A DNA stretch of 64,000 nucleotides from Psammoneis japonica. Its lineage: Eukaryota. The stretch spans positions 124,001 to 188,000 of the forward strand of contig QPGO01000057.1 of the NCBI GenBank assembly GCA_008632985.1. The letters run 5' to 3'. Within the stretch, counting starts at the first letter, position 1; every line of letters starts with the position of its first letter. The notes under the pieces are model-generated. The model ran no database searches, was not told the DNA's origin, and saw only the letters and a list, made by a program, of their open reading frames with translations. Of the stretch, positions 4,657-60,716 are shown piece after piece. The position numbers and the translations under genes are program-made.

Positions 4657-4680
4657 TACATATCTCAAAGGAAGACATCA

Positions 4681-14376: not shown

Positions 14377-14403
14377 CTGCTGCTGCTGCTGCTGCTGCTG
14401 CTG
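14377..14403. repeat. (CTG)n microsatellite
   Basis: About nine CTG units. Confidence 0.9.
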
Positions 14404-34500: not shown

Positions 34501-34821
34501 GTCTTGCTGTTCCCTTGCTTGTTCGACACACGTTGTTCCCTTTTCTTCGCACAAGAAAGCTCGAGTTTCAGAGCATTCTACAGTGACAACTCATGAGAAA
34601 TCTTCATCCTCATCTTCTTTCCCTTGCTCTGCCAGCTTTCGATTGTTTCTCCGACCGTTGATGTTCCCGCACATTTCATGCATGTCATCAGGGATCTGCT
34701 TCTCTTTTGGCGTGCGACGATTGCATCGCTGCATCAACAGCTCTTGCAGACTGTCATCAGATGACACTTGGATCAACAAAGCAGCCAACAAACAAAAGAT
34801 TTCCAAATGCCGCACCATCAT
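31590..34821 (-). pseudogene. Subtilisin (S8) protease pseudogene with signal peptide and C-terminal hydrophobic tail
   Basis: GKGVKVAVLDSGIDCTH (canonical IDYTH), QGHGMAVAS (HGT), GASFLAPVVAGAAA (GTSxxAP), IAAGN. Multiple stops and shifts. Confidence 0.88.
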
Positions 34822-34879
34822 GGCACTGTGAAGCAGGGGCATGCTTGCTTGACAGACAAGTCGACGGCGACAGAGAGTG

Positions 34880-35804: not shown

Positions 35805-37099
35805 GGATGATTTGTGATGAGAACGATGGACGGTGGCATCATTGCATCACATCATCACATGTTGTCATCCAACATCACACATCGCGCATGCACGCGCTCA
35901 CAGGAGGCAACGAGACGAGAACAAGCAGCAGGCGCATGCTGCGGCACAAAGCAGCAGCCACACATCTGTTGAAAGGGTGGTGATGGCACCCTCAAAGATG
36001 AGCACCTGTCAGAAGCATCTTTTGCCAGCGGCGCTGCTTTTGTGGACAACCAAGTTCCTGTCCACACTGCAAGCAGCCTGCATCTTTGCGAGGTTCTTTG
36101 AACAAGAAAGGTCAGTGCCGGAGTGCACAAACATTGCATGCTTGCCTCTTTGTGGGAAGTGGTGGCTCCGAGTGCACTCACCACAGACATGATTGCAGGC
36201 CCTGGGATGACCCACAAAAGTTCTTCTCTTTGCCCAGTTTGCCAGCAGGGCGGCACACTCCTCACACATTTTGTTGTGGAAAAGGCAGCCAACATTGGCA
36301 GCGCATTGGCTGGGAAGGCAGCAGCACATGTTGTGGGACTTTCATGAAGAGACCCATGGACCATGAGCTGAATGCTTTTCCCATTGGGCACCAGACAGCA
36401 ACAGGATTTTGTGCTTGTTGTCCCATCAAGAAGGGCTGGAAATGTGATGGCTCTTGCCTCCATTGGAATGCCGTCTTTGCTCGTTGGCCACTGTGATTCT
36501 GAAAGAATGGCTGCAAACAGATTTTGGTGGATTGATCAAGTGGCTTGCAGGCACTTGACTGGAAATTGGGTGCCAGATGCAGAAACAGCAGAGCCCTGGT
36601 CAAATGAGTTGCAAGAGGACACAAACACATGCAAAGCACTCCCCCAGAATCTCCCTGTGACAGGTGCAATGTTTTTTTTTTTGCTGCTCAGAAAAGACAT
36701 GCAGCACAATGACTCAGGGGTCACCCAACACTTTTCATCCAAAGGCAAAGAAGCTGTGCTGAGTGAGGATCTTGATGATTGCTTGAGGCCAGTGAACCAT
36801 TTTCAACAAAATTTGCATCAGCAGCGACAAGGCCTTGCAATCTTCTGAACTTGCCAATGAAGGCAGCAACATTGCAGCCACTGCAAAGATCAGTTCCTGC
36901 ATTGCCAAGAGGCCAATGTGTCAATGCACAGCAGCCAAACCTCCAATCATTGCAAGCATCAAAATGTTGAAAAGAAAAAACCAAAAGAGGGAGGTGGCAA
37001 GCTGTTGCAAGACACAATCTCCATGTTCAAAATGAGCATGACATTGAAGTGTCAACTGCACACATGAAATGGGAGAGAACAGGCACCACAATCATTTGC

Positions 37100-40000
37100 T
37101 GATGAAAAAAGAAATGATGCAGAAAAACACAACAAGCTCAGAAGGACAAAGACTTTCATGTCCGCCAAAAGAAGAGCTGCTGAGGCTCTGTTGTGGGGAT
37201 TGGGGATGCAAGGAGAGCAATGAACTGCAGGCAAGTGATTGGCAAAATTGCCAAAGCTGATGCAAAAGCTGGAAATTTGCTGAAGGCAATGATGCCATGC
37301 AGCAAAACAAGCTGCCAATGGTCATGCAAAATGCAAAGCAAAGTGTGAAAGAATGGATGCACAGCATGAGCAACTGCAATGGTGCTGAGGACAATGACCA
37401 TGATGAGCACAGCAAAGCATTGGAGACAATGGGCCTGGCATGGTTGGCTCTTGCCATCATGCCATGGCATTTGGCTCAAAAGCCAAGCATGCTGGGCATG
37501 CTTTTGCTGTGTGCCAGACTGTTGCGCCAGCTGAAGACAATCTTCGGGTGGGCCTCTCTGCAATGCTGCTGGGTGCATCAGGCCCAACCCAGAGGATGCA
37601 ACCCAATGCACAAAGTCTGCGCATGCTTGACAGCAGGGGTGCGGTGGTGCAAGGAGGTGGGGATGTGGGCCAAGCACCAACTTGAGAGTGGGTTGTGTGC
37701 TGAGAGAGCCCCCTTCAGCAACAAGTTGAATCTTGAGCACCACACACCATGCTTGCTGCAGCTAGCCAGGGCAGTCAGCACCAGCCAAGTTTCCAAAATC
37801 ACCACTGTAAGAAGATGGGGACTGCCCCAATGCTGGTGTCCCAGCCATTTTGCAAACATCTGGCACACAGCTTGTTGTTTTCTCTGACAATGAAAGTTGC
37901 TTTTGAGGAGATGTCTGAAGCAACATGTTGTTCTCTGACTCTCCCTCTCATTGCATGGTTGAAAGATCTTGAGAGTGCACTGCATCATGCTGGTTGAAGG
38001 TCAGTGGCCTGCGCAAGATGGAAAAAGAGGCAACATTGCCTCTTGCCAAGAATGCGCAACACCAGTGTCTCTCCAACAACCAACTCTGGGTGGAGCAAGG
38101 GTGTGAGCTGACTCCAAGGCAGCTTCCAAGTTGGAGTCAATTCCACCCAAGAACTCCACAGCCTGAGCCAAACAGCATGCCACCAAACCACCAACACAAC
38201 TCTTGGCTGTTCTTTGCACAGCCCTTGATCCACTGAACTTGCTGGAAGCATCCAACTCAGATTTGCACCCACTGATCAAAGACAACAGCTGGCTGCATCA
38301 GTGTGGGAATCCAGGTTTCATGCTGCCCATGTGGTTTGCCTTGTCCGCATCCACCAAATCATGGTGATCCTGCTCAAAATGTGAGCTGCTCTCACATGTC
38401 AGCTCATCTTTGGCAGAAACTGTGCCACACTCCTCCTCACTGTGCAAGATCGTGCATTTTTGCTTCAAACCAGCACAGAAGCAGCAGAAAGGGTTGTCCC
38501 ATTCTGTGCTGATGTTGACCTGATCAGCACACATGACAACAAATGGCTCAAGAAAGTGCAGTTTGGACACAACTCTTGGAGCCACTTGAGTGCATGGGCC
38601 TGCAAGCCAATGCCAACAAAACAAAACAAAACAAAATTGCAGCCTGCACACCTGGCCAAATCAGCAGCAAGGTGACCTCTCCAACACATTGTCAATGGTC
38701 AGAGGGTGCAGCATTGTCAAAGATGCCCCCCCTGATGGCATCCTGATTGTTTTGCAAAAATTTGATGTGGCTTGTTGTTCTCTGACTCTCACCCCTCATT
38801 GCATGGTTGGAAGTTGAGCACAAGCAGCACAGGCAAAGGTTGATGGCCTGCACAGGAAAACAGAATGAAGTGGCCTCACTTTTTGGAAACCAATCTTCCA
38901 CCTGTCAGAGGCACACCAAAATTTGCAACACAACTGGTGCCCCAAATGAACAGCCCAAAAGAGCACAAGGAGGTGAGACAAACTGGCATCAATCCTCACC
39001 AACTCCACAGAGCCCAAGCCAGACAAGAGAATGACACCAACCCACACAACTCTTGGTCACTCAGCAGCTCCTTCTGCTCTAAAGTTCTCACTTGAGACAT
39101 CCATCACATGTTTGCAACTGCTGTTCAAAGACAATGACATCAGTTTGTGGGACCCAATTTGCAGACTCTCGCCCATTCTTCATCTGGTTGTCTGCCAAAC
39201 AAGTCATGGAGATCCTGCTCAAAATGTGAGCCTGTCTTCAGCTCTTTCCTCAGATCCTCAGAGACTGTGTCACACTCACACTGTGCAAGTTTGCACACCA
39301 TTTCTCTGCTGTGACCAAAGAAACAGTCATGGAGTGGATTGTCCTGTTTTGTGCTGATGGTGGCCCAATCAATGTGCACACAACAATGAACAGCTCTCTC
39401 CAGAGAGTGCTCAAGCAACTCTCGGAGCCACTCCAATGCATGCTGGGTGCCTGCGTAAACCACCAACAATGCCAACAAAACCAAAACCATGGCCATCACA
39501 CCTGACTGCATCAGTGGCCAGTTGGTCCACCAACACATTGTGAATGGCTGGGGAGAGCACAGCAGTGCCAGCCTGCTGAGCAGCACACAGGTGTGCAGAA
39601 ACATGTTGGGTCAGTGTCCAGAGTGCAGGAAGAAGTGTGCTTGCTGCTGTGGGATGATCTCTGGACTCAACATGCCTTGGCTTCTCTTTTGGACAGAGCA
39701 GGCCAGGCAGATGCCCCTGGGCATCTGCCAGTGGAGCATTGGGCATTGGGTGAGGTTCCCGTGCACAACCTTCAGGGTTGTTCATCATCCTGTGGACACC
39801 CACTTGTGCAAGCCTGTGCTGCTGGGCAACCCAAATTTTGCAAGAAAGAATGTTTTGACAGCATCTCAACTTGCAACATCTCAATGACTCCATGTGCATC
39901 CTGGAGGAGGGCTCTTGCCCTCTGAAACAATGCAAGTTGTGCAAGAGGATGTGTGTGCTCTGTGTGCCATCCAAGCTGACCCCACAACCCAACTCTGCAT

Positions 40001-40600
40001 GTTGCCAAAAGGGGAGGGGGGACAAGGCCAGTTGCAGCAGCGTGGGGCACTCAAGTTGGCACACACCCAGCCCAAGAAATTGTCTCATCAGGGTGCGGCA
40101 CTCCTCTCCAGGAGGTTCAAACCTTTTGACATGTCTCAAGCACTTGCTGCCATGCACCCCCCCTCAACCCAGCCAAGGTGTTGCAAAAGTGCTGGTGCAG
40201 ACCCACTGTGCACAATCAGCTTCACTTTGTGGGTCAACGATGTGGAGACCACCACTCCCCAGGTGCTCAAAGCACGTGATGGGTTCCATCAGAAGGTGGT
40301 GTGTCATCTTTCTGACAAGCAGGAGCCACACAGTCTCTCTTCCTGATGCCAGGAGAGGATCACACGGAGCTCCACGTGTGGAGATTGCAGGCCAGTGTTT
40401 GATTGGATGCTGCATCAGGGTCCAACAGGGTGCACTTGTGGAAAGCATTTCCACCCAACCAGCCACCTGGATCTTTGAAAAGGTGCAGAGAGGCTGCCAC
40501 CAGGGTCCTCCACCAGATGCCAGCTCTGGTGTGGAGGAGGACACACACAGTGGGCAGGGGAGATTTTGTCTGCAATGGAATGGGTGTGGCTCAACAGCAG
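37100..40600 (+). mobile_element. Decayed non-LTR (LINE-like) retrotransposon with two tandem RT-core segments
   Basis: DLESA; GVEQGCELTP; FCADV and LFCADGG (YADD-derived); GLQANANKTK; SLCGSTMW (LYGSETW-like); DGFHQKV. Confidence 0.65.
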
Positions 40601-41823
40601 TCTAGCGTGCGGCCCAGGGGGGGCACCTTCTCTGCTTGGGGATCAACATCCCCAAGTCAAAGGCATGGGATGGGGCTCCCGGCTCCGGTGGCGGATTACG
40701 CCATGAAACGGTGGAAACGCACTCTGCCATTGTGGCTGCTGCGGTGTGGTGGTGGCCCCAAATTCGAAGGAAGAATCGGATGAGTCGTCGCGTTTGTTTG
40801 CGCGCCGCCACACATCACGTGCACATCATCACCGCACCTATTATGTACCTCTCGGCATTCACCATGAGCATGTGCTGAATGAAGTAGCGGCTGCAACCAA
40901 GACAACATAACATCCGCAACAAGTCATGGCACCACAAAATCACGGCACATGTGCCCAAGGAATACCCGTAATACCCGTAAACAAGAAGCGTTCTTCAGCC
41001 AGGTTATTAGCACTAGAAGCTAAGCGAGAAGGTATCAAGTCTGCAACAACAACACGCAACACTTACAAGAGCAAGTTTCTTGATTTCGGAATTCTTCCGA
41101 GTGAATGATATAAAATCAAATCGAGTTGTACTGAACAAGTTCCGTGGGGTTATATTTGTGGATATCCAACGAAGAACGGGGACTTGTATGGTGGTGGTCA
41201 CTACATAGAATCGGCAGGCAGTGACACACTTCAAGGCCGAGCGATTGTGCAAGCCACTCTGAAATTTGCTTCTCCCGGTAAACGTACACTTGATTTTACG
41301 CCGTGTAAAAAGGGCTCTGTGCCATATAAGAATGGTAATCGCATGTATGCGTGTCCCTTGCATCATGCTAAACGTTTTGAACGGGTACAACGACACGGGT
41401 ATCGTGACGGTGAAGTCGAGCTGGAGCCCTTTTGGAACAAGTACGAAGCAACTCTAGAGTGTAAGGATAGTTTGGAGGACAATTCACTAAAAAAAGCAGA
41501 ATCAATGAGTCCTTGTGTCCATAAGAAACAAAAAAAGATAAGGTAAGGAAACTGTGAACCAGTTGGAAATGATGAATCGGTCTTTTTCCTTCGTGAACCG
41601 TGAATGACATGTGATCGAGACCGGCGAGTTGTCGGCAGCGATTTGGCATTGAACAAAACGGCCATGTTTTGAAATGGGCTTATTTCATAGTTTTGAACTT
41701 CTAGTAGAGGAGCAATCAACTCAGAACAAATGCTACGCAAGCACAGTAGAAGGTACAAGCGAAGGCAAGGCGACAACAGAGCAACTCGGGTTGCCGTCGG
41801 CTTTATTTTTTGCGACACAGATC

Positions 41824-43635: not shown

Positions 43636-45549
43636 CTAGCGGCGACTCATGATCCTTGCAGATCTACGCACGACACGCCCAGTATTAGACGAAAGAAAGA
43701 CACTACCCGTTGCTACACCGAGCCTAGGCGAGCGTCTCAAAGGGACAGGTTGGGTTTGTTTCTCCTCGTTTCTCACAAGTACAGCATCAGGAACAACATC
43801 CTCCTCTGCTCCTGGATCATTGTCAGCAGCCATATCCTGAACGATGACAGTATCGTCAGGTTCCTCGGCTACAACTCCAAGAACGACTTCCTCATCGTCG
43901 TATGCAGCAATAGCAGGATCGTCCATGGCTTCAGCAACAGCAGGTTCCTCAATGACAGGAGTGGGAATGATTGCCTCTCCATCGATTGTTGCATTATCCA
44001 CATCCACTGCAGGATCGTCCAAGGCTTCAACGACAGGTTCCTCTACAACAGAAACAGGTACGCCCACCTCCGCATCGTCTGGTGCATCGTCAACAGTCAC
44101 AGCAGGCTCGTTCAAGGCTTCCCAAGGCTCTTCAACAACATCAGGAACTGCTTCCTCCACAGCATTTAGATTGTTGTCCGTATCCTCAGCCGGTTCCATA
44201 TCCAAAATATCCGAGGCATCGTCAGCAATGGGGCTGTTGTCCGTAGCCTCAGCGGGTCCAATGGCCGCTGGAGTCCGTACCCAGCCACGCCAGTGATCAC
44301 ACGAAAGATCAGAGTCCCAGTGACGAATACTTTCTTCTTCACCCGCATCAAATTCAAGCATCGCCACAGCCAACTGCTCATCATTCAACACGGGTATCAC
44401 ACGGGTGTAACGTGCGCGTCGAAGAACGCGTTTGGCAGGCACACCGGTTGGGACTGGAGGAATGTCACCAACGTGAAAGTCTTGAGTCATCACTCCGTCG
44501 GGTTTCCAACTGACATGCCTTTCTACTGGATCAGCAAGAGCCTCGGCCGGTTCCATGGCCGCTGGAGTCCGCACCCAGCCACGCCAGTGATCATATCTTG
44601 GATGCGCACGATACTCACGAATGTATCGGTCTTGTTTCCGGTCAAACTCAACCAGCACTGCAGCCAATCTCTGATCATCCAATACGGGTATCATCCGGGT
44701 GTAGCGAGGGACTCGAAGAATTCTTGGAGCAGTCACGCCGGTTGGATTGGGAGGAGCGTCACCAACGTAACGGTTCTTAAGCATCATTCGGTCCGGTTTC
44801 CATTTGATGCGCCCATGTCCAACTAGTTTGCGCTTCAACAGCAGCAGCCACGGGAATAGAAACCGCAAAGGAACGTAGATGAAGTAGAAGAACCAATACA
44901 CGGTCCATACAACAAATGCAACCGCAAGAATAGCCGCAACAGCATCGCACACTCGATCCCAAAGAAGCGTGGCGAGGTCGTCAATTTCGATAATATGGCG
45001 GTACAAGAAATGGACCTTATCACCATTCATCTTCAATGAGGAGTGTACGAATATCCCAGCATATAAGGCGAGAAGAACTTCACAGATCGCAACGACAAAG
45101 GGCACGAGAGCGTGAATCGTGCAGCGAATCATCTTGTCCCACGCTTCCCGAAGAAAACCGCCAACGATTCGGCCGTGGTTCTGCTTACCGTGAAATGCGC
45201 GTAGCATGAGGTTGATAAAGAGAATGAGTAGTGCAATGTATGCAATCATAATGGGGGTGATAGTATCAATAAAGATAGATTGGTAATAACCGAGTGTTGT
45301 TTCAACAAAACTTGAAATTGTGCGGTGAGCGAGACGTGAGATAGACGTGGCTCGTTGTTGCGGCTGCGTCACATTCGTGAATGCGTAGAAACTGTACTGG
45401 TGAATCCCGTAGAAAAGCCGACAGTCAGTCACGCTTTTCAAGTTTTGACGGGATGTCGCGGCACGTTTGCATTCGGTTCCTCGTAGGCTCTTGAGCAGGT
45501 GATAACAGATGCCGATGCTGATGCTGGACATAGCCATAATGAATAGCAT
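43636..45549 (-). CDS. Hypothetical membrane protein with a 98-aa tandem repeat, acidic region and LRRSPRL...RRSAR tail
   Basis: 637-codon ORF. Two copies of WKPD...YTR.IPVL...DHWRGWVRTPAA spaced 294 bp. True start may be downstream. Confidence 0.65.
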   Translation of the reverse strand: MLFIMAMSSISIGICYHLLKSLRGTECKRAATSRQNLKSVTDCRLFYGIHQYSFYAFTNVTQPQQRATSISRLAHRTISSFVETTLGYYQSIFIDTITPIMIAYIALLILFINLMLRAFHGKQNHGRIVGGFLREAWDKMIRCTIHALVPFVVAICEVLLALYAGIFVHSSLKMNGDKVHFLYRHIIEIDDLATLLWDRVCDAVAAILAVAFVVWTVYWFFYFIYVPLRFLFPWLLLLKRKLVGHGRIKWKPDRMMLKNRYVGDAPPNPTGVTAPRILRVPRYTRMIPVLDDQRLAAVLVEFDRKQDRYIREYRAHPRYDHWRGWVRTPAAMEPAEALADPVERHVSWKPDGVMTQDFHVGDIPPVPTGVPAKRVLRRARYTRVIPVLNDEQLAVAMLEFDAGEEESIRHWDSDLSCDHWRGWVRTPAAIGPAEATDNSPIADDASDILDMEPAEDTDNNLNAVEEAVPDVVEEPWEALNEPAVTVDDAPDDAEVGVPVSVVEEPVVEALDDPAVDVDNATIDGEAIIPTPVIEEPAVAEAMDDPAIAAYDDEEVVLGVVAEEPDDTVIVQDMAADNDPGAEEDVVPDAVLVRNEEKQTQPVPLRRSPRLGVATGSVFLSSNTGRVVRRSARIMSRR

Positions 45550-46221
45550 CTATTTTATGGCTATTCTGTACAATGAAATTCAGTGTTGCTTCGACAGAGC
45601 ACACTCCACTTGCTGCGCATGAAACATTCGAACGCACTTTCCCACGTCACACACTGGCACCAGACATTGCGGGCCAGTTTTTGGCCAGGACAATGAAGCA
45701 GAGCAAAACAAGACATCTTGGCATTGATAGAACCACAAGTTCTCAGAATCACCATTCAGCAATTCATCTTGTTTCAATTTGCTGGGAAAGCCATTTGGTG
45801 GATGGCGACAAGGGCTTCCACTGCGAACCCCGAAGCATGCCCCGTTTAGATGCGCCGCCAGCAGCAGAGTGACAACAACCGTACAATGGCTCACAAGTAA
45901 AAACAGTGCCATTAAAATGCAACTGACATCTGAAGAGAGTGTAAGACTCAGGTGATGTTTGCAATGGCAGACATGCAGTTCTTGCGCCTCTCATCAAACG
46001 GGTGGGGATCACGCACCCAAAGCATGGTCGACACCCCAATGCTTCACAACGCCACGGTGCATGGCGGCAAAAGGTCACTCAAAGTAGACTCAAGCTCCAG
46101 CGTCTTTGTGTGCATGGCAAAACTTTCTTTGAAACAGCCCCTCTGTCTCGAACGTTGTTTCCGGTCAAGATTGTCCTGGCCGATTCCGACATCCGGATGT
46201 GAGGTGGAACAAGCTTGTTGC

Positions 46222-47345
46222 TGACACGTCTCTCTTCCTCCATAAAATTAAACAGCGGTGGAAGGGCTTCTCCCCAGGGAAGACGGGTGCCTTCCAATCA
46301 AAGCTTGTCAAAAAGGCGTGAGCACACCCTTCAAGAGGCTTGATGCGATTGTCCAGAGTGTGCGCCAGAGTGGATGCTGTGCATTCCATTGCTTCTTCCG
46401 GCATCCTGTTTCGAAATGCCTTTTCCCACACTGACATCCCTTTGTCTGGGGAAACTTGAATTCAATGTAGTTGGAATTCATCGAGCTGATCTCCTTGCAT
46501 GTTTGGGGTTCCTAGAACCTTGATGATCTCTGCAAGCTGGTCGACACCCGAGTGGCCAGTGGGAAATGGAGTTGTCCCAGCAGCAGCTCCACTCCAACAC
46601 ACCCCTCCGACCAAATGTCAATGGCGGTGGTGCACTCTGTCGACCCGAAAATGAGTTCGGGTGCACGGCAGCATCTCAAGCAAATGTGTGATGCATTGGG
46701 TTCCCCACGAACAAGCCTCTTTGCACTCCCAAAGTCACACAGCTTTTAAGCTGCTGGTTTCTTGGGTCACCAGCAAATTCTGCAGCTTGATGTTGCGGTG
46801 GCAAATCCCCAAAGAGAGGACATGTGCCAGCGCTCGGGAGAGCTGGTGCAGGCAGAGCTTGACACACAAAGCAACGGGAGAGTGGCTTCTTGGATCTCTG
46901 ATGGGTCCACCCAACTGAGTGCACAGTTTCAGGGACATGCTCCAAAACCAGATTGAGGCACAGCTCATTGGGTTTTTGCCCTGCAAACGAAGAAGTCCAA
47001 CCGCGTGACTTCAGCGCTGCACACAAGAACAAACATGCCGCCACTTTTGCAAATCGAACAAAATCAACAAATCAACACAGGGCCCTGCGTGAAAGTAAAA
47101 GCAGTGCTTGAGTGCAACAATGTTGGAACGGGGATCCACAACAAGTTGACGCATGATCTGCAGCTCTCTGTTCTTGAAGCGCTTGTCATGAAGCACCTTT
47201 TCAATGGCGACAACATCTCCTGTTTCAACAACAGCCACTTGAAACACCACACCGAAGGACCCATTCCGACAACTCTTTCAGTTGAATGTGAAATCTGTTG
47301 CTCTCCCCCAGCCGCTTTCAAAGAAACAATTGATTTTGCTCGAGT
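46222..47345 (-). pseudogene. GSK3: GSK3/shaggy-like kinase pseudogene
   Basis: [85 protein letters not shown]. Frameshifted. Confidence 0.93.
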
Positions 47346-47940
47346 GGCACCATTGGACCTCACACAGTGTGACTGATTCTTCTCCTGAAATTTTGCTTGA
47401 TGCATCATTTTGGAGATGCAGTCACATGCCACACCAACGAGACAAAAGAGCACTCGCTTTTTCAACTTGTTCTTGTTGCTCTTTTTCTCCATCTGCAATG
47501 CTGGACCACTTGTTGCTTCAGCTGCAAGCACCTTGCAGTTTTGCATCTCGGATCGTTTCCATGCCCATTGTCTGGATGCAGGTGTGAGACTGGAGAGCTC
47601 TCTTGCTCAAGTGGCATGGCATGTGGCATGTGGCATGGGCTTGCCATCATTGCGTTGTTTTTTGTGTGTTTTTGTGGTGGGGGAACTGCCTCTGCCGGCA
47701 CCATGCCGTCACACCCAAAATTCCACCCAAGTGGCAAAAAAAAAGTTTTCTGCTGGAAAGTGGAACTCTCGCATGCAGAAATGTCAATGCGGAGACAGCA
47801 TCTTCTAAAGAATTCTGCCGCACTGTGCATCCACTGTTTGTTCCACTCAGGTGCAGTGGAAGGCACAGCAGAATTTTCGGAGCCAAAAATTCTGCCCTGC
47901 GCGTGCAGTGTGCATGCAGACAAAAGGTCATTTTTGTCAT

Positions 47941-48308
47941 GCCCTTTGTGACATTTAAAGGCTGCAACACGTCGCCGTGATGCGCTGGCTCTTGTTGGTG
48001 GCTGTGTGTTGCACTCCTCCCCATGTGTCACACGTCCATGCGGCTCTTTACTGGCACACACTGACACTGCACGGTTTTGGCGGAACAGTGTGGGTACGTG
48101 CAAAGGAACACACAGAACTGCACAGAGTTTTGCGCGTTCGACAGTGATCAATGTTGCTGCAGACAACTCCCACTCAGGGTTTCGAACCCCTGGCCTCCTG
48201 CCTGATGGTTGCGATGAACCACTCCGCTGTGAACGCCCTTTGTGACATTTAAAGGCTGCAACACGTCGCCGTGATGCATTGACTCTCGTCAGCAGCTGTG
48301 TGTTGCAC
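47941..48308 (+). repeat. 74-bp direct repeat (47941-48014 and 48235-48308)
   Basis: GCCCTTTGTGACATTTAAAGGCTGCAACACGTCGCCGTGATGC identical in both copies. Confidence 0.9.
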
Positions 48309-49007
48309 GCACCCCTTTCGCGCGATCTAAACCATCTGTCCTTGGTGAGGTCGGGTGCGACGGCAGGAACAAAAAAAATGCTCGAAAGTTCTGCTCGTCT
48401 CAATGCGGCATCTCAACCATGAGCGTTGCCGCGTGCAACCCCAGCAACTGCACCAATGCCAACTGCATCTGTGGTGGCATGGCAGTCAGCACTCACAGGC
48501 GTCCTGAGTGCAGCAGAAACCTTCACACTTCTTGTGGGAAAGCAGACGAACGACTTGCACTGCTTTCAACTTTGACAAGCTCCAAAGCACCCACTTGAGA
48601 TTGCTGTTGTGAGTTTCATGTTTAAATGGCACTGAACAGTTGCGTTGGCCTAAGAAACAATCAGCACCTTGCTGCACTTCCACCAGCTTGACAAGAAAAC
48701 AAGCTGCTCCCCAGCACGGAAGGCACGACCAAGGGTTGCTTGATCTTAAAACAGATTGTTCCGCATCCTTGGCTTGAGACACATTTTTTAACAACTGTTT
48801 GGTCCACAATGATCTTGGCACTTTTGCTGCCATGGGTGCTGAGTGGACCTGCGAGGGACAATGAGACTGGAGAAACAGTGAGGAACAAACTCTGCCACAC
48901 TCGACAATCATCAAACGCCCAAAACATGAGATGTGCACAACAAACAAACATTTCCATCACACATTTGACACCATCATTGGCAATTTTTTTTGTTCTCACC
49001 TTTGCAG

Positions 49008-49201
49008 TGTCAGCCCACCTGCACATGTCGTGTGATGGACAGACTGTGCATGGATGATGACCGGACCATCTAGATTGACGAGCAGATCTCTCTGAGATCT
49101 GCTTCTCACTTTCTCATCTGCCAGTGCTCATGTTGTCACAGTCCTGGCACTTCAGGGAGTCTTTCACACCTCTGTCATCATTGACCTTCGGCACTCTGTC
49201 A
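49008..49201 (+). repeat. 5' LTR
   Basis: Gap-free alignment with 55374-55567. Confidence 0.95.
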
Positions 49202-51480
49202 GGTTGTGGCCTTGTGCTGTGCCACAGACCTCTGTGCCAAGCTTTCCGTTTTGATTCATTTGTTTTGTGAGCCGATCGAGCAAGCCTCATCTCTTGTTCC
49301 CGGAAGGATTTTTATCTCGCTTTCCCGGCATTTTTCACGCTCATAGAAACACACCAGATTTCTGCACGTGCATGACCAAAAATGTTTTCACGAAGTAAAA
49401 CCATGGCGTCTCCCGACCTTGCAAAGGCCGCTCCCAAGTCTGTCACAGAGATCTGTCATGAGTTCCAATGACAGGATTTGAACAGGATTTGGGTGCGCGC
49501 GACATGTCGCGCGCTGTTTAGTTTACCGCGCACAGTTTTGTGTGCTTCAGTTTTGCGCGTTCGTGCGCGATGCAGTTTGCTTTCGAGCCACAAGGCTCAC
49601 AAGAACAATGACAGCAGCCCGATTGTGCCGACTTGCACGTCTTTCGTCTCTGAGTGGAGACTCATCTGCTGTTTAGACAGCAGCAAGGAGTCATTGTTTG
49701 AATTCTTGCCATTTGCTTTCAATTTCTGTCAGATTGACAGTCTTGCTCATTGTCAACCCATTGAGCAACCGCCATTGTCGTCGTTGATTTACCGACGACG
49801 CTGTTCCATTCTGTGTGGACCTCCGTGTGTGCTCTACGTACATCGGCAAGTCTGCGCGCATTCAATGCCAGGCATCGGCAGGAAGTTAACGTCGCCGTCA
49901 AGTCTCCTTGCCGCTGGATGTCTGGATTGATTGTGCTGCCTTTTGTCGCTGAAGACACACATTCAACGGTCATGTCCAAGTCCATCCTTGATCCTCATCC
50001 CTTGACACACCCATTCAACGGTTAACGGTCAAGAACCCCACACATTCAAGGATCTTCGTTGCTGAAGACATGCACATGTGCACATCTTCACGGCCAAGGA
50101 CTTGAACCCACTCTTTGGACTGCGGCTTTGCCACCACTCTACAAGCACACCAAGTCTGTTGCACCTGATCTACCCCGGACCACTGGTGCTCTGCAGTTCC
50201 ACCAGGTCCACGAGGACGACTGTGAGAGCAAGCAGCCATGATTGCAGCCCACGTTGGGGCAAGGGTGTTTTCCCGCGTTTGTTCGTTCGTCCACAGCACC
50301 TGACGCCTGCGTCAACTGGCCAGCCTGATCGAGAAATCCAACCGATGTAAAACAAGAACGGTTCAGGGGTCTTGTCCACCTCTGGTCAGCTCACCTGCAG
50401 GGGTTTGCAACCCGCTGCTCTGCTCGCAAGCAACCCAAAGCGCCACCAGCTGCGGGTTCGGACGTGCCGGCACAACTCTGTGGACCGGACAGGAAGTTTA
50501 GCACTTGACAACAAATGGGACAGCACACCCCGGCGACTTCTGATTTTTTAGGATGGTTCAAGATTTCAAGTCAAGTCCATTTCAAGCCAAGTTCCAAGTC
50601 AAAACTCTGAGTCAAGATCATGCTCTAGATTGGCTCCTGTCTTTTGTTTCTACTGCACCGTCCTCCGTCATGGTTCTCACGCGACAGCAACAAACCGAAA
50701 GCTTCAAATGCATTCTAGGCACTGTGCTCAATCAAGACAATGACAGCCCTCTTTGTTCTGCCCTGTCCATCAATGGGATTGAATCGTGTGAGGAATTGTT
50801 CACGTTCTCACCCACCCAAATTGATGCCCTCACTTGCAGAGACGGCGCCAATGCAGTGCCTTTGCCACGGACCCACAGAAACCTCCTAGCAGCTTTGATC
50901 AGCTTCTGCTTTGTCAAAGTTTGCAACGGTGATGATGTGACCAATGAACCCCAGTTGCTCACACCCGACGAATTTCGCAACTGCCGCCTTGGTCCGGACT
51001 GCTTGACCTCTCTAGCCACTGGCGCAGCACCCTCTGCACCTGTGCCGAGTCCCTTGCCATCCAAACCAGGTGAACCCAGTGCCATTTTGACACCAGCCTT
51101 GCACTGTGCCGAAACTCAGGTGTCCCCTAGAAGTGGTGTCAGCCGCGCCCCGCATGTCTTGACCAACCCGCCTGCAAGCAACCTCGGCCCAGTGCAGGAT
51201 TGCAGCCCTTGCGCAGGCCCGCACTTCAAGACCAGTTGGGACACTCCACCCATGGCTTCCAAAGCTGCAGTCTTTGCACCCCGCAAACCATGTGCTGCCA
51301 ACCTCCACATGTTGACCGCTGTCACCCTTCACAGTCTTCGTTTGGGAAGTGATGGAGATGACAACTTGCTTCTCGCATCTCCTGATGGGGAGCCTCCTTT
51401 TCCCGTCATTGAATCTGTTCACAACAGTTCAACCGGTTCATCAGATGGGGAGTTCAGGACATCCAAGCAGCTTCGTTGTC

Positions 51481-52245
51481 TTTGGATCCTCCAAGCATCG
51501 CACCACGAGACGAGGCCTCCTGATCGGATGCCTCAAGTCTCGCACCTCAAGACTGGGCCTCCTGATTGGATGCCTCAAGTCTCGTGCCTCAAGACTGGGC
51601 CTCCTGGTTGGATCCTCCAAGTCTCGCACCTCGAGACTGGGCCTCCTGATTGGATGCCCCAAGTCTTGTACCTCGAGACCAGGTCTCCTGATTGGATGTC
51701 CCAAGTGTCGCACCTCGAGACCAGGCCTCCTGATTGGATGCCTCAAGTCTCGTGCCTCGAGACTGGGCCTCCTGGTTGGATCCCCCAAGTCTCGTACCTC
51801 GAGACCAGGCCTCCTGATCAGATGCCTCAAGTCTCGTACATCGAGACTGGGCCTCCTGATCGGATGCCCCAAGTCTTGTGCCTTGAGACCAGGCCTCCCA
51901 ACTGGACTCTCCACGTCTCGTGCCTCGAGACCAGGCCTCCCAATTGGATCCTCCACGTCTCGCACCTCAAGACTCGGCCTCCGGATTGGATCCCTCAATT
52001 CTTGCGCCACGAGACCCGGCCTCCTGATTGGATCCCCCAAGTCTCGCACCTCAAGACTTGGCCTCCTGATTGGATCCCCGAAGACTCGTGTCACAAGACT
52101 GGCAAGTCCTTTTGGATCCCAGAAGTCTTGCAGCACGGGACTGGTTGCCCCAATCAGACATCTGCAGCCCTGCATCACAAGATGTCTTGCTCCAATCCGA
52201 TCCCTGAAGGCTTGCACCTTGAGACTCGTTTCTCCAATTGGATCA
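51481..52245 (+). repeat. 42-bp tandem array, about 18 units, inside the LTR element
   Basis: Unit reads ET(G/R)PPD(W/R)MPQVS(Y/H/C)L. Confidence 0.97.
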
Positions 52246-55200
52246 GTCTCTCAGGAGATGCAGCTGAGCTTGCAATCGGATTGGTGGAACACAAGACCAC
52301 CGCTTGTGCCTTTGAACTCATGCTTGCTCTGTTCCCCAAGTCGTGCAAACACCATGCCACCCTGCACGAGCACTGCTCTGTTTTTCTGGCAGCAGCCCAG
52401 TGTGGCAACTGTTCCAAGAACCAACAGACGGCCATCAGTCTTTACGACCTTTGCTCAGGAAGTGAAGGCGATGTCAACTTGTTTGCATTGTCCTGCGATG
52501 TTGCCCCGCCATTCAACATTGTCAACCAGAGACTCATCTGCCATTTAGACAGCAGCAAGGAGTCATTGTTTGAATTCTTGCCATTTGCCTTCAATTTCTG
52601 TCATCCAAGCACATGGCACTCCACCACACGTCCATGCGTCCCTGAACAGGCTGCACGCGGATGCCACATTGGATCTGGATCTGTTCTTCAACGATCCAGA
52701 ACACACTTGGCCCAAGAAGAATTTTGTGGACTCATTCCATGAGTTTCTCATAAATCAAGCGATTCCACCTCACACGGTGGATCCTGTGGACATGCAGTCC
52801 ATCAAGACGATTGTGGATGAAGCTCGTTTTTGCGTTGTGGACCCTGCCAAGTCTCACGCGATTCGTTTGATGCCTGAAGGTCTCTCAACCATGATCAAGT
52901 TGAATCTTCAGCAACACGAGCAATTTCTCTACATTCGTGTGTCAACGCACCATGTGCACTTCAATCCTGATGTGACATGGAATTACAGAGATTGGAAAGA
53001 GTTTTCTCTGTCCCCACACACATCCAAACAAGCTCACGTGGCTCCACAGTCATCGAGTGTGAATCCTTCGTTGATGTGCATGGACCATTTCACAACAACA
53101 TCGCGTCATGTTGTGCACAACCACACTCGACAACTGCAAAGCATTGTGGAGGCACTCTTGCGTGTGATGCACCCCAGTGTCGACCTCCACAAGAACATCT
53201 GCCTCATCCAGCGACGAGCATGAATTCCTCGTTGATTGGTGTCTGCGATTCCGTCACAACCGGGCGTGGTCCTTCATCAGCAACTGCGCCACTCCATGCA
53301 AACACAACCATGCATCCTGGAGGCACTGACATGCATCTTCCTTCCAATTGTGTGCCACATGCAAAACAAGGAGCTCTTGTGCCTCTTTCAATGACGAGTG
53401 CACCTCTTCCCTCTACAAGCATTCATGATCTTGTTGATGTGTCATGCAACTCCTCATTGGGGTCTGCATCATCCATTGTGCCTGCCACTTTGTCTTCTGG
53501 AGAATCTGCTGCACCTGTCATGTCTGTGGATCAGGGTGTGACTCCTGACATCAAGGCCACTGGGGAGATTGAAATTGGTTCTCGTGTTTGGGTTCGAGAG
53601 CCCGGTTCCCGTCGCTCCAAGTTGCACCCCGTCCCAAAGAAGGGCATTTTCCTTGGTCATTCATCTGACACCAACAAGCACGTCCTGTGGCAGGATCCTG
53701 AAAACTCTCAGATCAAGATGGACACGAATGTGCACTTCAACGAGGGCATGGACGGACCTCCTCGTGCAAAGGATCAACGCCATCCAGACCTTTCATCTTC
53801 CGGTGACCGTGACGGATGTGAGAAAGCCTCTTCACTCTTTTCCTCACCTCCGGCCTCGTCTTTGACTGATCATGCATTTGAAGATTCCAAGATGGACGCC
53901 GCCACCGAGTCCTCCAGCCAAGATGATGCAGATGTGACTCAAGATGAAGGTGCAATCTTAACGGGTGCTCGGATTGATCCTGTGAATGCCACTGCACTGG
54001 ATGTCAAGTCTCCCATGTCTGTTGTGGTTCCTGCGAGCAAGACATCTGCAATTGTTGGCACCGGTTCACTTGCATTGTCCATCGGATTGGTGGCATTTCC
54101 CGCCGACCTCCATGCTTGCCTGCTCAAGACCCCAAAGTTTTTTGTGTCTGGCAACCCCATTGTTTCATGCAATGGGGCTCGCTTCAATCCATTGGATGGA
54201 TCACACTGCATTGCCAAGGTCACCCTTGAGCTGTTTGCTGCCTCTGTGGCACCGTCGCATGATGCGAATGATGCCTGTGGATGCAGCCAGAGCTCTGTTG
54301 GTTGGTTGTCAGGTTACTTCGTCCTTGGATTTTTGGCTCGGCCGTCGTTAATTTCGGATGTGCGATGCTGCCATTCCTTCCATTGTCCGAACAAGACCAA
54401 CAGAAGCGGGGTTGTTGTGAAAGAGGGCCACCGAGTCTCACTGCCTTCCGCTGTGCCATCTCTTTCCTCCGTTGTCAGGACCATTGTCACGTCTGTTTGC
54501 ACTTTTCATGGTGCTCCAGACCTGCCCACCATCGCTGATGATGATCCTTTGTTTTCTTGTCAAAGGAGGGAGCAACATTGTGCAGAAGAACTGTGCAAGA
54601 TTGACAACCACACCAACTCTTCCAGTGTGTTGCCTTCTTCCTTTGCTGTCAAGACCGCTGTGGTGTTGAGCGGTGTTTTTCCTGGTGGTCCCGACCTGTC
54701 GACTGTCCCCGACGATGACCCTGCATTTTTAGATCAGGGGAGGGATTCCCACAGCACAGAGGAAGCATGTCAGGCTGTTGAGAACATCACATTCAATCAA
54801 GAAACCGTGCTTGATGACCATCATTTGAAGGCCTTGCGATGCTCACTTGCGATGCGTCACTGTTCTTCCGACGTTGAGTGACTGCACGATGCATTTTGTT
54901 TGTCCAATGTGTTCTTCAGGGGTGACACATCCGGTGGCAGAAATGTTGTTTTGTCAGGTGGATTGCTGTTGCTTCTTTATTGCCGCGCTGTCCGCCATGG
55001 TGGATTTGCATTTTCTGGCTCCATCCCTTCCGATGAGATTTGGTGACAGCATGACTTGCCAGAATGTCTTTCTGCGATCGATTGCTTGTTGATTGACAAA
55101 TTCATTTCTTTGGTGCAAGACTCGATTTGTCTTCAAGATTTGTTGGAAACTGCCTTTGATGTTTTTGTCGAAGACTCCGTTGGATCAGCACATGTGCCCA

Positions 55201-55373
55201 GCTGCCTTTGGAGATTTTTTGGAGATGTCATTGCCCTGTGCTGTGTGGTTCCTTTACGATTGCGAGTTGAGCCTGGACACTTTGTTTTGTTGTCCGGTCT
55301 GTTTGCATCATCCCTGTTCTTTGTTTTGATCTGCGCTGCTCTCCATGTTGAGACATTGCAGATCAGGGGAGGG

Positions 55374-55567
55374 TGTCAGCCTGCCTGTGCATGTCGCATG
55401 ATGGACAGACTGCACATGGATGATGACTGGACCATCTAGATTGACGAGCAGATCTCTCTGAGATCTGCTTCTCACTTTCTCATCTACTGGAACTCGTGTC
55501 ATCACAGTCCTGGTGCTTTGGAGAGTCTTTCATGCCTCTGTCATCATTGACCTTCAGTGTTCTGTCA
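55374..55567 (+). repeat. 3' LTR
   Basis: Preceded by the PPT at 55365-55373 and followed by the TSD. Confidence 0.95.
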
Positions 55568-56488
55568 TGCAGTCCGAAGCCAAGCTTGATTGTGAAAGCT
55601 GCTGTGTCAGATGCGGCAGTCCTGTCAGTGTCCTCTCTGGGAGCAAAAGTCGTGAAACACCCAAGAGGTGAGGAGCAGCAACAAATCCACTGCAAGCATC
55701 ATTTTTTTTCACAGTCACACCAGTCTGCAGCGGTGTTCATGCCGTTGCTGCAATGGGTGCCGGGTGGACCTGTGAGCGACCACAAAACAACAGAAAAAGT
55801 GAGAGAAAAGCTGTGCTCCAGAAAAAAGCATCAAACGCCCAAAAGACGGGCTTTGCAATGAGCACAAACACAACCATGAGATTTTGAATGGTTCCTTCAG
55901 CGAGCATTGGCATTCTCACCTTTGTCCTCAAATTGCCAAGCAGAAATGTCATCGCTGCTGCTGCCGACGCGATGGCGCCGCATGTTTCCTCTCTTGCAGC
56001 AAAAGTCATCAAACACCCAAAAGGCAAGGGCAAGCAAAAAATCCAAAGCAAGCATTGTTTTTCTCACAATCGCATCAGTCAACATTGGCATTCATGCCTT
56101 TGCTGCAATGGGTGCCGAGTGGAACTGCGGGCGTTCAAAGGCCATGGTTCGTCTTGGCGTTTTTTTTTTGGCTTCAACTCCTCTCGTGGGTTTGCGCAGG
56201 TTGATCACCAGCACGTGGCTTCTGCACTGATGGCCATGGCTTGGTCTTCTTCCCCATGGGATGAGCACTGCTCTCCACAGGGTAGAACTGAGGGCAGATT
56301 TTTTTGGATGCATTGGCCCGGCAGTGTTTCGGAAGGAAGCAGCCAACTTTTGCAACTCGGGACTGCGAGAGATGCGAATCGTGCGAAACTTGGTCCATCC
56401 ACAGATGCGTGAAGAAAATGAGCACTGGTGCTGCGCTGCACAGCACCGGCGCTCGTCAGCACACATCACACATCATCAAAGTCACATC

Positions 56489-58700
56489 ATGTCATCACTG
56501 TTCAACACGGCTCGGAGCCACCAAGACTCTGTTTTGTCACCTGACCACTGGGTGTCAACAGACACGGTCTCACCACTGAGTGAGACACAAAACACCAAGT
56601 GTGGCAAGTGTTGCTGCTGTCACCAATCCATGCGCCAAGAGAAAAAGTCTTGGCCAACTGTTGCATCCACCGGCAACAGCGGCACCACAGTGACAAGTGC
56701 CGCAAGTGCTGCAGCAGACATTCTCGCGAGGGCAGATGGAACACAGCTTTCCCGAGGGTCGGCAATCAAACTTTTTGAGTGGCATGAAAAAGAAAATGAT
56801 GAGAGTCTCTCTTTGACAAAATTGGGCACTCTGAATGACGAGGAAGCGAAAGGCGCAAGGCCATCATGAAGAGCTTGATCAGTTTGTCTTGGTGGATGAA
56901 AAATGCGCCTGTTCTGCAACAAAATGACACTGGGAAAGCCATGGGTGAGCGATCCACAAAACAACATTTTTCAAGCATCAAAGAGACAATGAAGAACAAA
57001 ACTCTGGCACTGGAAACATGGGACAACCACGAGGAAAATTGGTGCACCGACCTGTGAGACAGCCTGGGCAAGGGTAAAAAGCACAGCCTTCTCAAAGGCA
57101 AAGAAGAATTCAAAGAAACAACCTGTGAGGCACTTCTAATTTGCAATTCTCTTAAAAAGCTGTGAGTTGGCCATAGAATGTGGCATGAGATGCTTGGTGT
57201 TGATCTCGAATCAATCTGTAAAAATGTCATTCGTCAAGACAAGCCGGGTGCATGTCGTGATTGTGCAAAGCTCATGCTCACGTCTCTTGCAGTTGGCCGT
57301 GGTGGAGAAGTTACGTTTCTGTGCTGGAATGAGTTCCAGTGGGATGATTTGTTTCTTGCGGTGGAAGGTGCACGGACCAGAGTGAAGACCTTGTCGCAGC
57401 AGATGTTGCATTTCCAAGGGCATCATGATGGGTTCCTGTGCTGCATCCATTGGACCCTGGGAGCATTCTTTGCTGTGGAAGATGGCTTGTGCCGGCATGA
57501 CAGCTTGGACAAGAAAACAAAGCTGGCAAACAAGGCATTGTTCCCAGATCTTTGGTGGATTTCTGATGCAGCTGCAGCGGTGCAACTTGCAAAATCAACA
57601 AAGGAAAACTCGGACGCCCAGATGCATGTGTTCAATTCATCTCGGAGCATTTGCGTTGGCTCCAACACTGAGCTTTCAATTCATCCAGACATTGCACCAG
57701 AGGAGCAACGTCTTGCTGGTGGTTTCTTGGCTGGTGACAACATTGAGCTGCACACCAGAATGAATCCTTTGGCTGGAATGGTGCCGGCCAATGTGCTTGC
57801 GGGATTTGAGCATCCACGAGACATGGTGCATCCAGCAAGTCTGGATGCTCTTGTGGGCCATGTCACAGCAGAGGAAATGGACTGACTTGTGTCATGTCTG
57901 TGCCTCATGTTGGTTTCTTTATTTCAACCGGACGGCCGTCTTTGACCTCTCCTGCACAATGTGACAACCGCTAAGTTGGCAATGAAGTGCCCTGTTGTGC
58001 ACAAGGAGTTTGGCCCTGGGAATTGATTGGTGTGCAAATTGGTGTCCTCTGTTGTAAAAGCCAGGTTGGCAATGTCTCCAGGGGGAGGCACACTGCAAAT
58101 TGGTCATGTGGGCGGGCATCATTGACAAGGCCCACGAATCGGAAAACAGTCGGGTGCCAGATGCAGCAGACACAACTTTGACAGATGCAATCAACAAGCA
58201 GTCATGTGTGATCCAAAAACTTGTGCAGTTGAATTTGAAACTGCAGCAGAAACAAGCTCTTGTTGGATCTGAAGTGTCTGGACTGAAGACATTGACAACA
58301 ACCACATTCTTGTCGTCTGTTGTCACTGCGCTGAAGGCAGCGTTCTGTGGGCGTGGGCAGCTGAGGAGCCAGAAACAAACAACAACACTGAAGAACCCGT
58401 TGTGGAACAGGAATGTGCTCACAATGCCAGAGCTGACAAGATTTTGACAGCATCCTGGCTGCAGTTGCACATGAAACAGAGCATGCAGCATTCACCAACT
58501 TGACAAAAAGACAAGCTTGTCCAGCCTGCGGATGACAATGACTGGTGTCGGTGGCAGGTGCAATGAGTGTTGTGAAGCCAACGGGTGCATCCACCACAAA
58601 GGTGGGAAGAGGAGTCCTGCAGAGATGTCAACAGAGGGAGGAACAGGTGTCTTGACTTCATTCTTCTCAAGAATGAAGAATGCAGTGTCACCAGCATGAG
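56489..58700 (+). mobile_element. Decayed tyrosine-recombinase (Crypton-like) element
   Basis: AVGRGGEV (catalytic R), VKT, SSRSICVG (xxxR box with R->C), IELHTR (expected Y->H), ANVLAGF. Internal TGA stops. Confidence 0.6.
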
Positions 58701-60716
58701 CAAAGAAGCACCGCACAAGCACTGAATGATGGTGAATTGTTGCGCATTGAATGGCGCATTGTGTGGATGTGCTTTGGGTGCCAGCAGGTTTTGTTCTTTC
58801 AATTGCAGGAACTGTCATGCATCCCTCACCACCACAATCCTTGTGAGAACAAAGCAACAGAAGAAAAACCGTGCAAGCAACAAATGACAAACAACATGCA
58901 GTCATGTTGTTCTCCACTTGCATGCCAACTCTCGTGTGTCCCCTCTCATTGTGGCACTTCCAGTCAATGTTGTTTTAATTCTGCTGCTGTGCAAACTCTT
59001 GTGCACCCCCCCCTCTCTACCACAATCCTCGTTGAACAAAGAAAGGGAAGAAACACAGCACAAGCACTGAATGACACATTGCACAGAGGTGCACAACAGC
59101 AATTGCTGTTCTTTTGCTGATTCCACACAAACTCTTGTGCACCCCTCTCCACCACAATCATCATCAAAAATCCCTTTTCTGTGCTGAGCTTCACAACTTG
59201 GCAATCATCATCATGCACATGCTTGCTGAGTGAATCAAGTGGAAACTTGCAAAGGTTGTCAATGTCTGCAACTCTAAAAATGTTTCCCCTCTGACTGCCT
59301 TGTTTTGGTGGAGGAAACAAAAAACATGCAGTCACCAACATGAACAGACTCGCATTGGCGCAAAAGCAGGGCAGAGACACTTTGTGCCAGGCACAAAGGT
59401 TGCGCACGAGTTTGGCAAACTCTGCCTGCAGCTTTTTTGATGGGTTGCAGACCTGGTCATGTTCCAACCAGCCCTGTCACATTGCTGTGAGCGTGGCCTG
59501 CCACGGGTGCAGAAGCTTGTGCTGTTCTGGCCTGCCATGAATGGATCGGACACTTCAAAAGAAAAAGCTGGTTTCTTCTTTTTCTTCTGTGTCGACCGCT
59601 GCTTTTTCTTCCCAGTGGGTCTTGAAACTGAGGCAATGGCAACCAAAGAAGGATTGTTGCTGCTTTGAGCAGACGGGTTCCAGTCCCAGGTGGGACTCCG
59701 TGTGACATTGGGCCCGCAGAATTCTGCGTGTGAGCTCCACAGCAAATTTGCACTGCAACGAAAATGTGAATGATCGCCAACAGAAAAAGAGGCAATTTTA
59801 CGAACGCATCTCCTCCTCCACACTTGGAGCACATCATTGACAGTTTGCCCGGGTGCATTCCACCGACATCAAAGAACACACCCAGCGCATTTTTATTCTC
59901 ACAAATGTTGAAAATAGAAAGCCTTTGGCTTCGCAAAATGGGGAGCATGAAACAATTTTGTAGAATGTGACATGCAGAAATGTGCATGCGCGACACACGA
60001 CGCGATCCAAAAAACCATTGATGTCACAGTGCAGCAGCACGAGGTCCCACCCAGAGCTGGAACGCGTCAGCAACAAAATGACACTTGATGACGATGGCGA
60101 CAATGAACACAAAAATCAACCACCTCATTGACTTTCTGCAACACAGCACTCATCCCACAATGCATCACAGTGATGCATTTGACCTTGGAACAAACTTGTC
60201 ATTGGTCAACATGCTGCAGCTCCATCTCGTGTTGAAGAACATGCTCGATGAAGTCGTCAACTCGATGAAGGTGTGTCAGCGTCGGTGAGGCATCACCACT
60301 CATTTTCCGCGAAAAGTTCATGGTCGAGTTGAAGATTCCTTCGGCGGTGAGGCCGAACTCTCGCGAGCAATTTAGATTCGAACTTGGACATGAACATGTG
60401 GCCGCCGCTGGCGGCATCAGGAATCTTTCGCGGCCGCGAAAGTTTCGACGCCTTGGGCCCTTCAGACGGACGGAAGACGGACGTTTCTTTTGTTCTGACG
60501 TCATGCATCACTATTGGTCATTGCTACTGTACTCTACTGTAGCTGCCGTAGCTGACGTGGCAGGCGCAGGCGCAGGCGGGCCAAAGCGTGACTGAAAACA
60601 GCACTGCCAACTAAAATCTACACGTGTTATTTCTTGCTCATTTTTTTGTCTCATTTCACGTCTTCATTGCATACTTTTACTGTTACTCAGAGTACCAAAT
60701 AAACCACGAAATAACG

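Follow-up and report, generated by a model that had tools for sequence, protein, structure and literature searches.

A repeat-rich domain of the diatom Psammoneis japonica genome has lost nearly all of its TpA steps, and the best reading of the loss is a locally targeted mutator that would convert T:A to C:G at TpA by adenine deamination in DNA; from the sequence comparisons described below, we give this reading a probability of about 0.55. The domain lies at 45948..60511 of the window, by which we mean the whole stretch of 64,000 nucleotides that was analysed (contig C58, positions 124001-188000; host assembly 91 Mb in 597 contigs; genes with introns, about 49% GC). An earlier sequence-only reading of 45570-60510 had taken the surviving TA steps as the mark of preferred A>G change in 5'-TAY (R, purine; Y, pyrimidine), as expected of a TadA-type deaminase. 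A TpA process is already known from one preprint, discussed below; the window adds a polarised flank matrix, the failure of TadA predictions, and evidence that the process acts on DNA by position and distributively.

Segmentation of the window by a two-state hidden Markov model (HMM) on TA frequency gave five TA-erased blocks. The block at 45948..60511 keeps 75 TA steps, and its observed/expected ratios are 0.085 for TA, 0.57 for CG, 1.59 for CA, 1.64 for TG and 1.22 for AA, whereas outside the domains TA stands at 0.53-0.66 and CG at 0.94-1.08.

Since survivors cannot reveal the direction of change, erased copies were aligned to TA-rich copies of the same DNA. At the start of the domain lie a decayed GSK3 kinase gene copy and the 3' flank of that gene (45948..47315, minus strand), with the intron retained; an intact copy is located on the same contig at a distance of about 90 kb. 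The intact copy is the TA-rich side, and the codons in which its TA steps lie show the conserved state. At 58 ancestral TA steps of this pair, the decayed copy reads TG 23 times, CA 25 times, CG once and something else 4 times, with 5 steps kept. In a first polarised set, where each homologous site was counted once, 421 ancestral TA steps had become CA (182), TG (167), CG (3) or another dinucleotide (20), and 49 were kept; 349 of the 372 changed steps were TG or CA, a near-exclusive TpA>TpG/CpA conversion. Per strand, A>G reached 0.57 in TAC, 0.52 in TAT, and 0.26 in both TAG and TAA, while AAN contexts gave 0.008-0.05, equal to controls that compared intact copies with each other. A larger set held 117 pairs, with 3144 TA observations at 724 ancestral sites. 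Eighteen pairs were removed, 16 with changes common by descent (concordance at least 0.88) and 2 badly aligned, and 'other' outcomes were removed as well, which left 2560 observations (set B) and 680 distinct ancestral sites (set A). Choosing pairs by TA content inflates the overall TA loss, and should not create flank or strand bias.

The polarised pairs show change after duplication, which makes it scarcely credible that the pattern is base composition that was inherited, the result of selection, or an artefact of sequencing modified bases. An artefact is further opposed by contigs from a public DNA run, which reproduce the erased GSK3 copy nearly exactly (0-3 differing letters in five of the six listed pieces, 45584-47744), although the run may come from the assembly's own sample and the agreement is a technical check only. 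In favour of inheritance, 24 of the 81 survivors in 45570-60510 lie within one young multi-copy element, the 3.1-kb element at 49469..52603, perhaps partly handed down from its source copy; this only blurs the survivor counts of the region. The same public contigs differ from the assembly in a few places. At window position 47490 one of them reads T where the assembly reads C, giving a TA step that may still be segregating. At 46176, 46309 and 46972 they carry one extra base, and assembly errors may account for some of the frameshifts in that copy of GSK3. No RNA holder was listed for 43600-47900.

The speed of the process could be judged from three young copies that are 99.3-99.6% identical to an intact copy outside TA and CG. 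They have lost 38/45, 34/44 and 51/70 of their TA steps, and 5/48, 5/47 and 4/66 of their CG steps. Thus 73-84% of TA changed against 0.4-0.7% of other sites, a relative rate and not one per generation, and the TpA process is on the order of a hundredfold faster than background and ahead of CpG decay. Among TA-rich copies of a 1.7-kb element, A>G at TA accounts for 11 of 29 private changes, and the process seems to leak at a low level into copies classed as intact.

Five near-identical pairs, built on two templates, give the spectrum. A>G was found at 112/213 TAY, 37/177 TAR, 10/584 CAN, 3/701 AAN and 0/429 GAN, that is, at 149/390 TA sites versus 13/1714 elsewhere; C>T was found at 14/390 CG versus 2/1443 other sites. 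A weak secondary target, CA>CG (equivalent to TG>CG), was suggested at 6/699 versus 3/1388 (p=0.07). These counts bear directly on error-prone patch synthesis by DNA polymerase eta (Pol eta), which would produce WA>WG changes. The genome has a Pol eta orthologue (L191), and TA is among the WA hotspots of this polymerase (PMC7884765). However, AA>AG stayed at background, 3/701 against 149/390 for TA>TG, and polarisation on five intact copies gave 2/869 against 123/438 (p=4e-61). In somatic hypermutation, Pol eta WA mutagenesis likewise makes A>G at TA, but AA is a hotspot there (PMC7884765). With A runs uneroded and no clustering of changes, Pol eta is exceedingly improbable as the source. The sequence-only reading had preferred an adenine deaminase to Pol eta; the AA rate excludes Pol eta, and either an adenine deaminase or a lesion on the thymine side would fit the counts. 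Its remark that A/T runs are not eroded also holds, as runs of at least five occur at 3.6/kb inside and 2.6/kb outside.

The survivors themselves carry a clear context signal. In 45570-60510 the 81 TA steps fall into 36 YTAR (CTAA 6, CTAG 8, TTAA 14, TTAG 8), 21 YTAY, 18 RTAR and 6 RTAY, compared with 231, 368, 360 and 367 among the 1326 steps in TA-normal parts of the window (2x4 chi-square 42, p=4e-9; YTAR 36/81 versus 231/1326, p=7e-8). Six of the 81 sit in 45570-45947, ahead of the start of the depleted domain at 45948. The window's other four domains hold 35 survivors, 14, 7, 10 and 4 in the same class order (p=0.003). The ranking proposed earlier was therefore right, with YTAR as the largest class, but survivors are not 'mostly' YTAR, which makes up only 44%. 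Retention of TCTAGA in both long terminal repeats (LTRs) was likewise seen, with the TA at 49071 and 55437.

Because 24 of the 81 survivors belong to one young element, the region alone is a weak sample, and the counts were widened to 823 kb of the genome (505 kb within domains), chosen around matches to the window and not at random. Depletion of the NTAN contexts is unequal: relative to outside frequency, ATAT is lowest at 0.002 and TTAA highest at 0.62. The order in which YTAY and RTAR are intermediate and RTAY rare stands in the region (21, 18 and 6 of 81), but the 'intermediate' tetramers spread widely, from 0.030 (ATAG/CTAT) to 0.152 (GTAA/TTAC). With repeated contexts counted once, RRTAYY retained 4 TA among 4971 TA/TG/CA sites inside domains and 840/3125 outside (ratio 0.003), and YYTARR 346 among 4687 inside and 492/2885 outside (ratio 0.433). 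Across the eight context classes between these extremes, survival drops broadly with the number of matches.

Flank effects on the change itself were fitted by a competing-risks model in which either strand may change and exposure is fitted per pair. The +1 position was the strongest in set A (T 1.0, C 0.8, G 0.33, A 0.19). The TAY multiplier was 2.9; of the 322 informative sites, those with TAY on a single strand, 240 had changed on that strand. The A>G preference in 5'-TAY on either strand, first read from survivors, is thus borne out at about threefold. The motif is nevertheless wider than TAY, extending to RRTAYY. A purine at -3 raises the rate about twofold, A is best at -2, and a pyrimidine at +2 gives a 1.6-1.9-fold increase (relative rates C 1.0, T 0.84, G 0.58, A 0.44). 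Twice the log-likelihood gain in set A was 118 with TAY as the only term and 226 with the full matrix, and the site-bootstrap intervals of the -3, -2 and +2 terms exclude 1 in set B. Survival of TA with 0 to 4 matches to RRTAYY was 18/32, 35/148, 21/265, 5/179 and 0/56. Terms added to the flank model for hairpins, palindrome arms, local GC, A/T runs and nearby CpG did not increase the rate. The best motif reads the same on the opposite strand, the worst being YYTARR, and the -3/+2 effect is almost equal whichever strand changed, which suggests, though it does not prove, recognition of the duplex; a single-strand enzyme whose preference happened to be self-complementary could mimic it, as could a symmetric repair or fixation term.

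Whether the change is made in DNA or through RNA can be judged from the GSK3 copy, which still has its intron; the change was therefore made in DNA. ADAR-type RNA editing followed by reverse transcription, or editing of the single-stranded replication intermediates of elements, would suit the two ADAT1/ADAR-type genes of the genome and the many targets that are mobile elements. Against it, a gene copy with an intron, part of a segmental duplicate, was struck as hard, the strands were struck equally without runs, and copies of one element differ in their changes (median concordance 0.67 over 547 copy pairs). We regard this route as very improbable; an ADAR-fold enzyme acting directly on DNA would belong to the adenine deamination reading instead.

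Both strands were struck equally, and strand choices were uncorrelated along a copy at distances of 11-3000 bp, with a variance of per-copy strand bias of 1.03 over 99 pairs. At 1-10 bp, strand coordination reached z 2.4 in the pooled set, and this was not repeated in three subsets. Same-strand runs of changes, as made by APOBEC or TadA8e, were not found, residual products being within the null, although many rounds of action could erase a cluster signal. The sense strand of the GSK3 copy carries 23 TG and 25 CA, and a mutated copy of the neighbouring gene 24 and 20, such that transcription-strand bias is uninformative as to whether A or T is hit.

The lack of clusters also bears on a repair route, in which a TpA-specific glycosylase or nickase would leave a one-base gap opposite T, a Pol iota-type polymerase would fill it with G, and G:T would be fixed as G:C. 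The genome has a Pol iota orthologue (L190), and Pol iota places G more often than A opposite a template T (PMC3031609, PMC8595933). POLI is, however, present in other diatoms too and so is not diagnostic (PMC8595933), and the initiator, itself unseen, must bring all of the specificity. T has hardly changed in TT, TC or TG, and same-strand clusters are missing, so that patch synthesis is out. On balance we consider the route doubtful. The literature searched on a Pol iota or formyl-U signature gave no flank data.

Targeting is by position, and not by the pairing of homologous copies as in repeat-induced point mutation (RIP). Within an inverted segmental duplicate, the window's GSK3 copy is mutated and the neighbouring gene is spared (an intact frame at 43636..45549, minus strand, outside the domain), whereas the other copy shows the reverse: its GSK3 gene is intact, and the duplicate of the neighbour, at about 265.7-267.2 kb of C58, is the mutated one. 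In addition, domain edges fall within single elements: the 1.7-kb element has its first 250-300 bp spared in three young copies and its right part in an older one. It is these reciprocal hits and internal edges that point to position. The three young copies, on contigs C76, C103 and C31, spare the same first 250-300 bp, as if one end were protected. The process shares with ascomycete RIP the dinucleotide-specific saturation mutagenesis of repeats and the sharp edges. Its direction is the opposite, as RIP makes TpA from CpA, and unlike RIP, which mutates both paired copies (PMC2621366), it struck one copy and spared the other, with TA-rich repeat copies persisting.

What defines the positions may be silent chromatin. 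CpG decay in the same blocks, together with 29 genome matches to the cytosine methyltransferase family PF00145, leads us to infer that the domains are CpG-methylated silent chromatin that would recruit the enzyme. Diatom methyltransferase families include a RID-related DNMT4 (PMC9998398). Some PF00145 matches, on C297, C301 and C10, are clustered, some with stops, and are possibly element-borne or decayed copies.

The comparisons show that the process acts on DNA, on either strand and at single sites, far above background, in position-defined blocks with sharp edges and at a rate set by the flanks; on the favoured reading it is the work of a mutator confined to TpA steps in the chromosomal DNA of repeat-rich domains. 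Observed targets include transposon-like repeats and host gene copies. The A before C or T is usually the one replaced; on this reading it would be deaminated to inosine and replicated as G. Inosine pairs with C. Once one A had changed, the step would read TG/CA and the opposite strand would no longer be a target, which would explain why the domains saturate with mainly YTAR left. Adenine deamination is favoured because the changes are clean transitions carried to completion and because no Tet_JBP gene was found; the ADAT2 and the two ADAT1/ADAR-type genes of the genome, the A-to-I activity on DNA reported for amphioxus ADAT2 (PMC10354150) and the like proposal for B. natans also speak for it. 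A bolder version, which we hold only tentatively, is a natural double-stranded DNA adenine deaminase, recruited by silent chromatin, that reads the RRTAYY duplex and flips a single A at each visit, an inverse-RIP defence common to distant microalgae and outside the rules of TadA and ADAT2.

Several points weigh against adenine deamination as set out here. A TAY>TGY change reads as RTA>RCA on the opposite strand, and counts cannot separate a change at A from a lesion at the paired T. The hallmarks of TadA and ADAT fail, both in the TACG term and hairpin effect and in the GAA preference of amphioxus ADAT2, given that AA is untouched. Nearby CpG brings no rate increase (multiplier 0.85-0.95, slightly lower in the replicated set only). 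The deaminases found in the genome belong to families with ordinary roles, and no fusion of a deaminase to a reader domain turned up in the frames scanned (six Pfam deaminase searches and one protein search; no search for double-stranded DNA deaminase families was made).

The first of these points opens the way to an enzyme that would instead modify T in 5'-RRT*AYY, by oxidation or alkylation, making it pair with G and so give T>C. T>C is mathematically identical to A>G in TAY, and the self-complementary motif would suit a base-flipper that reads a pyrimidine-purine step, a parallel to CpG methyltransferases, which have many matches in the genome. The weak CA>CG target is compatible with either side. 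On the other hand, Tet_JBP gave no match at E<=0.1, which in an incomplete genome is not proof of absence. Moreover, the usual partner of 5-hydroxymethyl-U and 5-formyl-U is A, a poor fit to the near-complete, clean conversion. We therefore consider a thymine lesion unlikely, though it is to be taken seriously.

Returning to adenine deamination, the comparison with TadA is instructive. TadA needs UACG in an anticodon loop, with a strict G at +2, and TadA8e, which is processive on single strands, prefers YA only slightly (PMC10586758). The process shares with TadA an A>G change flanked by T at -1 and by a pyrimidine at +1, and to that extent the TadA-like motif of the sequence-only reading stood. 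It went no further, since T is as good as C at +1, the TACG term was 1.17 in set A and 0.88 in set B, not significant, and no G is required at +2. Hairpin-loop multipliers were 0.72-0.94 (p 0.08-0.86), with low power for strong hairpins, which only 29 of 679 sites have. The lack of a +2 G requirement and of a hairpin effect, a near-absolute T at -1, preferences at -3, -2 and +2, and the absence of clusters set the process apart from TadA and TadA8e. Its action thus looks like that of an adenine editor, yet its recognition is not of the TadA type. A natural eukaryotic enzyme acting on A in DNA has been reported in amphioxus, where ADAT2/ADAT3 favours GAA and the loops of hairpins, and edits TCG as well (PMC10354150). 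The motif of the P. japonica ADAT2 that corresponds to the residue discussed for DNA editing contains an N, as read by eye, but AA is untouched in the P. japonica domains, unlike the GAA and hairpin preference of the amphioxus enzyme.

Candidate enzymes were sought with the deaminase profiles MafB19-deam, dCMP_cyt_deam_1, NAD1, APOBEC_N, SNAD4 and A_deamin. The census comprised a TadA-like gene, ADAT2, two dCMP-deaminase loci, four small deaminases, two ADAT1/ADAR-type genes and one APOBEC-like gene. The ADAT1/ADAR-type genes number two rather than one (L187 on C40, L188 on C79). The APOBEC/NAD-like frame (L182:1057-2019, minus strand, C2 at about 247 kb) has no clear in-frame upstream start codon, and its protein had no relative at E<=0.001 among 2790 candidates. 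On C79, L108:319-1791 (minus strand) fuses a small zinc deaminase domain to a 2-oxoglutarate-Fe(II) dioxygenase. Two weak deaminase matches were rejected, L194 as a TMTC-family gene and L195 as decayed DNA; one further weak match lies on contig C82. There are five Y-family polymerase loci, including Pol eta, Pol kappa, the Pol iota orthologue and a second eta/iota-like gene (L193). The Pol iota locus (C22:252628-253293, minus strand) had Pol iota as its best PDB match (E 2e-26 versus 2e-14 for kappa).

The closest known process is in Bigelowiella natans, where integrated viral DNA undergoes TpA>TpG/CpA hypermutation at about 1000x background, with ADAT2 proposed, not shown, as the agent (Mettrop et al., bioRxiv 10.64898/2026.01.13.699255). 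As in the DNA of NCLDV (the large nucleocytoplasmic DNA viruses) and of virophages there, the changes in P. japonica are TpA>TpG/CpA only, local, far above background and in nuclear DNA, leaving clusters poor in TpA and rich in CpA/TpG. Here, in contrast, the process is near saturation, hits transposons and host gene copies, is accompanied by CpG decay and has a measurable RRTAYY bias. The rate was measured directly in B. natans and is inferred from copies in P. japonica. The main text of the preprint makes no mention of flank, context or diatom, and its table of 231 mutations (Table S2) could hold flank data. Literature searches for the process in diatoms gave only this preprint, with most subscription journals outside their scope.

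Beyond the GSK3 copy, the domain is a nest of repeats. A repeated insert of about 400 bp with terminal direct repeats lies at 47903..48307 (about 20 other copies among the matches listed), and a second at 59670..60070 (about 20 other copies at 88-91% among the matches listed). The 1.7-kb repeated element, with TA-rich and TA-erased copies elsewhere in the genome, is split into a left part (48308..49008) and a right part (55568..56320, a repeat match) by an LTR element on the plus strand. The latter consists of a 5' LTR (49007..49201, TCTAGA kept at 49069-49074), a decayed internal part (52604..55374, with a Pfam SH3_retrovirus match in frame at 52971-54878) and a 3' LTR (55373..55567, 86% identical to the 5' LTR, TCTAGA kept at 55435-55440). 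Nested inside it is the 3.1-kb element at 49469..52603, which has many copies at 87-93% identity and a 42-bp tandem array at 51482-52089.

The other TpA-erased domains of the window are 31740..40838, with intact counterparts of its first 4 kb on two other contigs, 12377..15440 and 7827..10556 (both HMM calls), and 4718..5923. At 8000-10000 and 36000-40000 CG is also almost lost (observed/expected 0.06-0.19, against 0.57 in the domain studied here), and these blocks are probably older than that domain. An intact MutS-family gene (17724-20468) occupies TA-normal DNA between two domains. The 3' end of an ABCF gene and the next gene are tandemly duplicated (84%) at 2862-4661 and 5781-7619, and only the left edge of the duplicate touches a TA-erased block, the right edge of 4718..5923 overlapping the partial ABCF copy. 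The exceptions noted earlier in this copy are real, CTAG at 2932 against CTGG at 5850 and CTAT at 3040 against CCAT at 5958; both lie beyond 45570-60510, the first inside the block and the second just outside it.

The flank matrix provides a fingerprint against which any candidate enzyme can be compared in vitro, and it can be set beside the B. natans mutations to test for a common origin. Should the enzyme prove to deaminate A in duplex DNA, base editing would gain a natural activity of direct use. For P. japonica itself, a mutator that saturates repeats at TA steps would be the mirror image of fungal RIP, and LTR-divergence dates and pseudogene ages in its genome are inflated by the TA changes.

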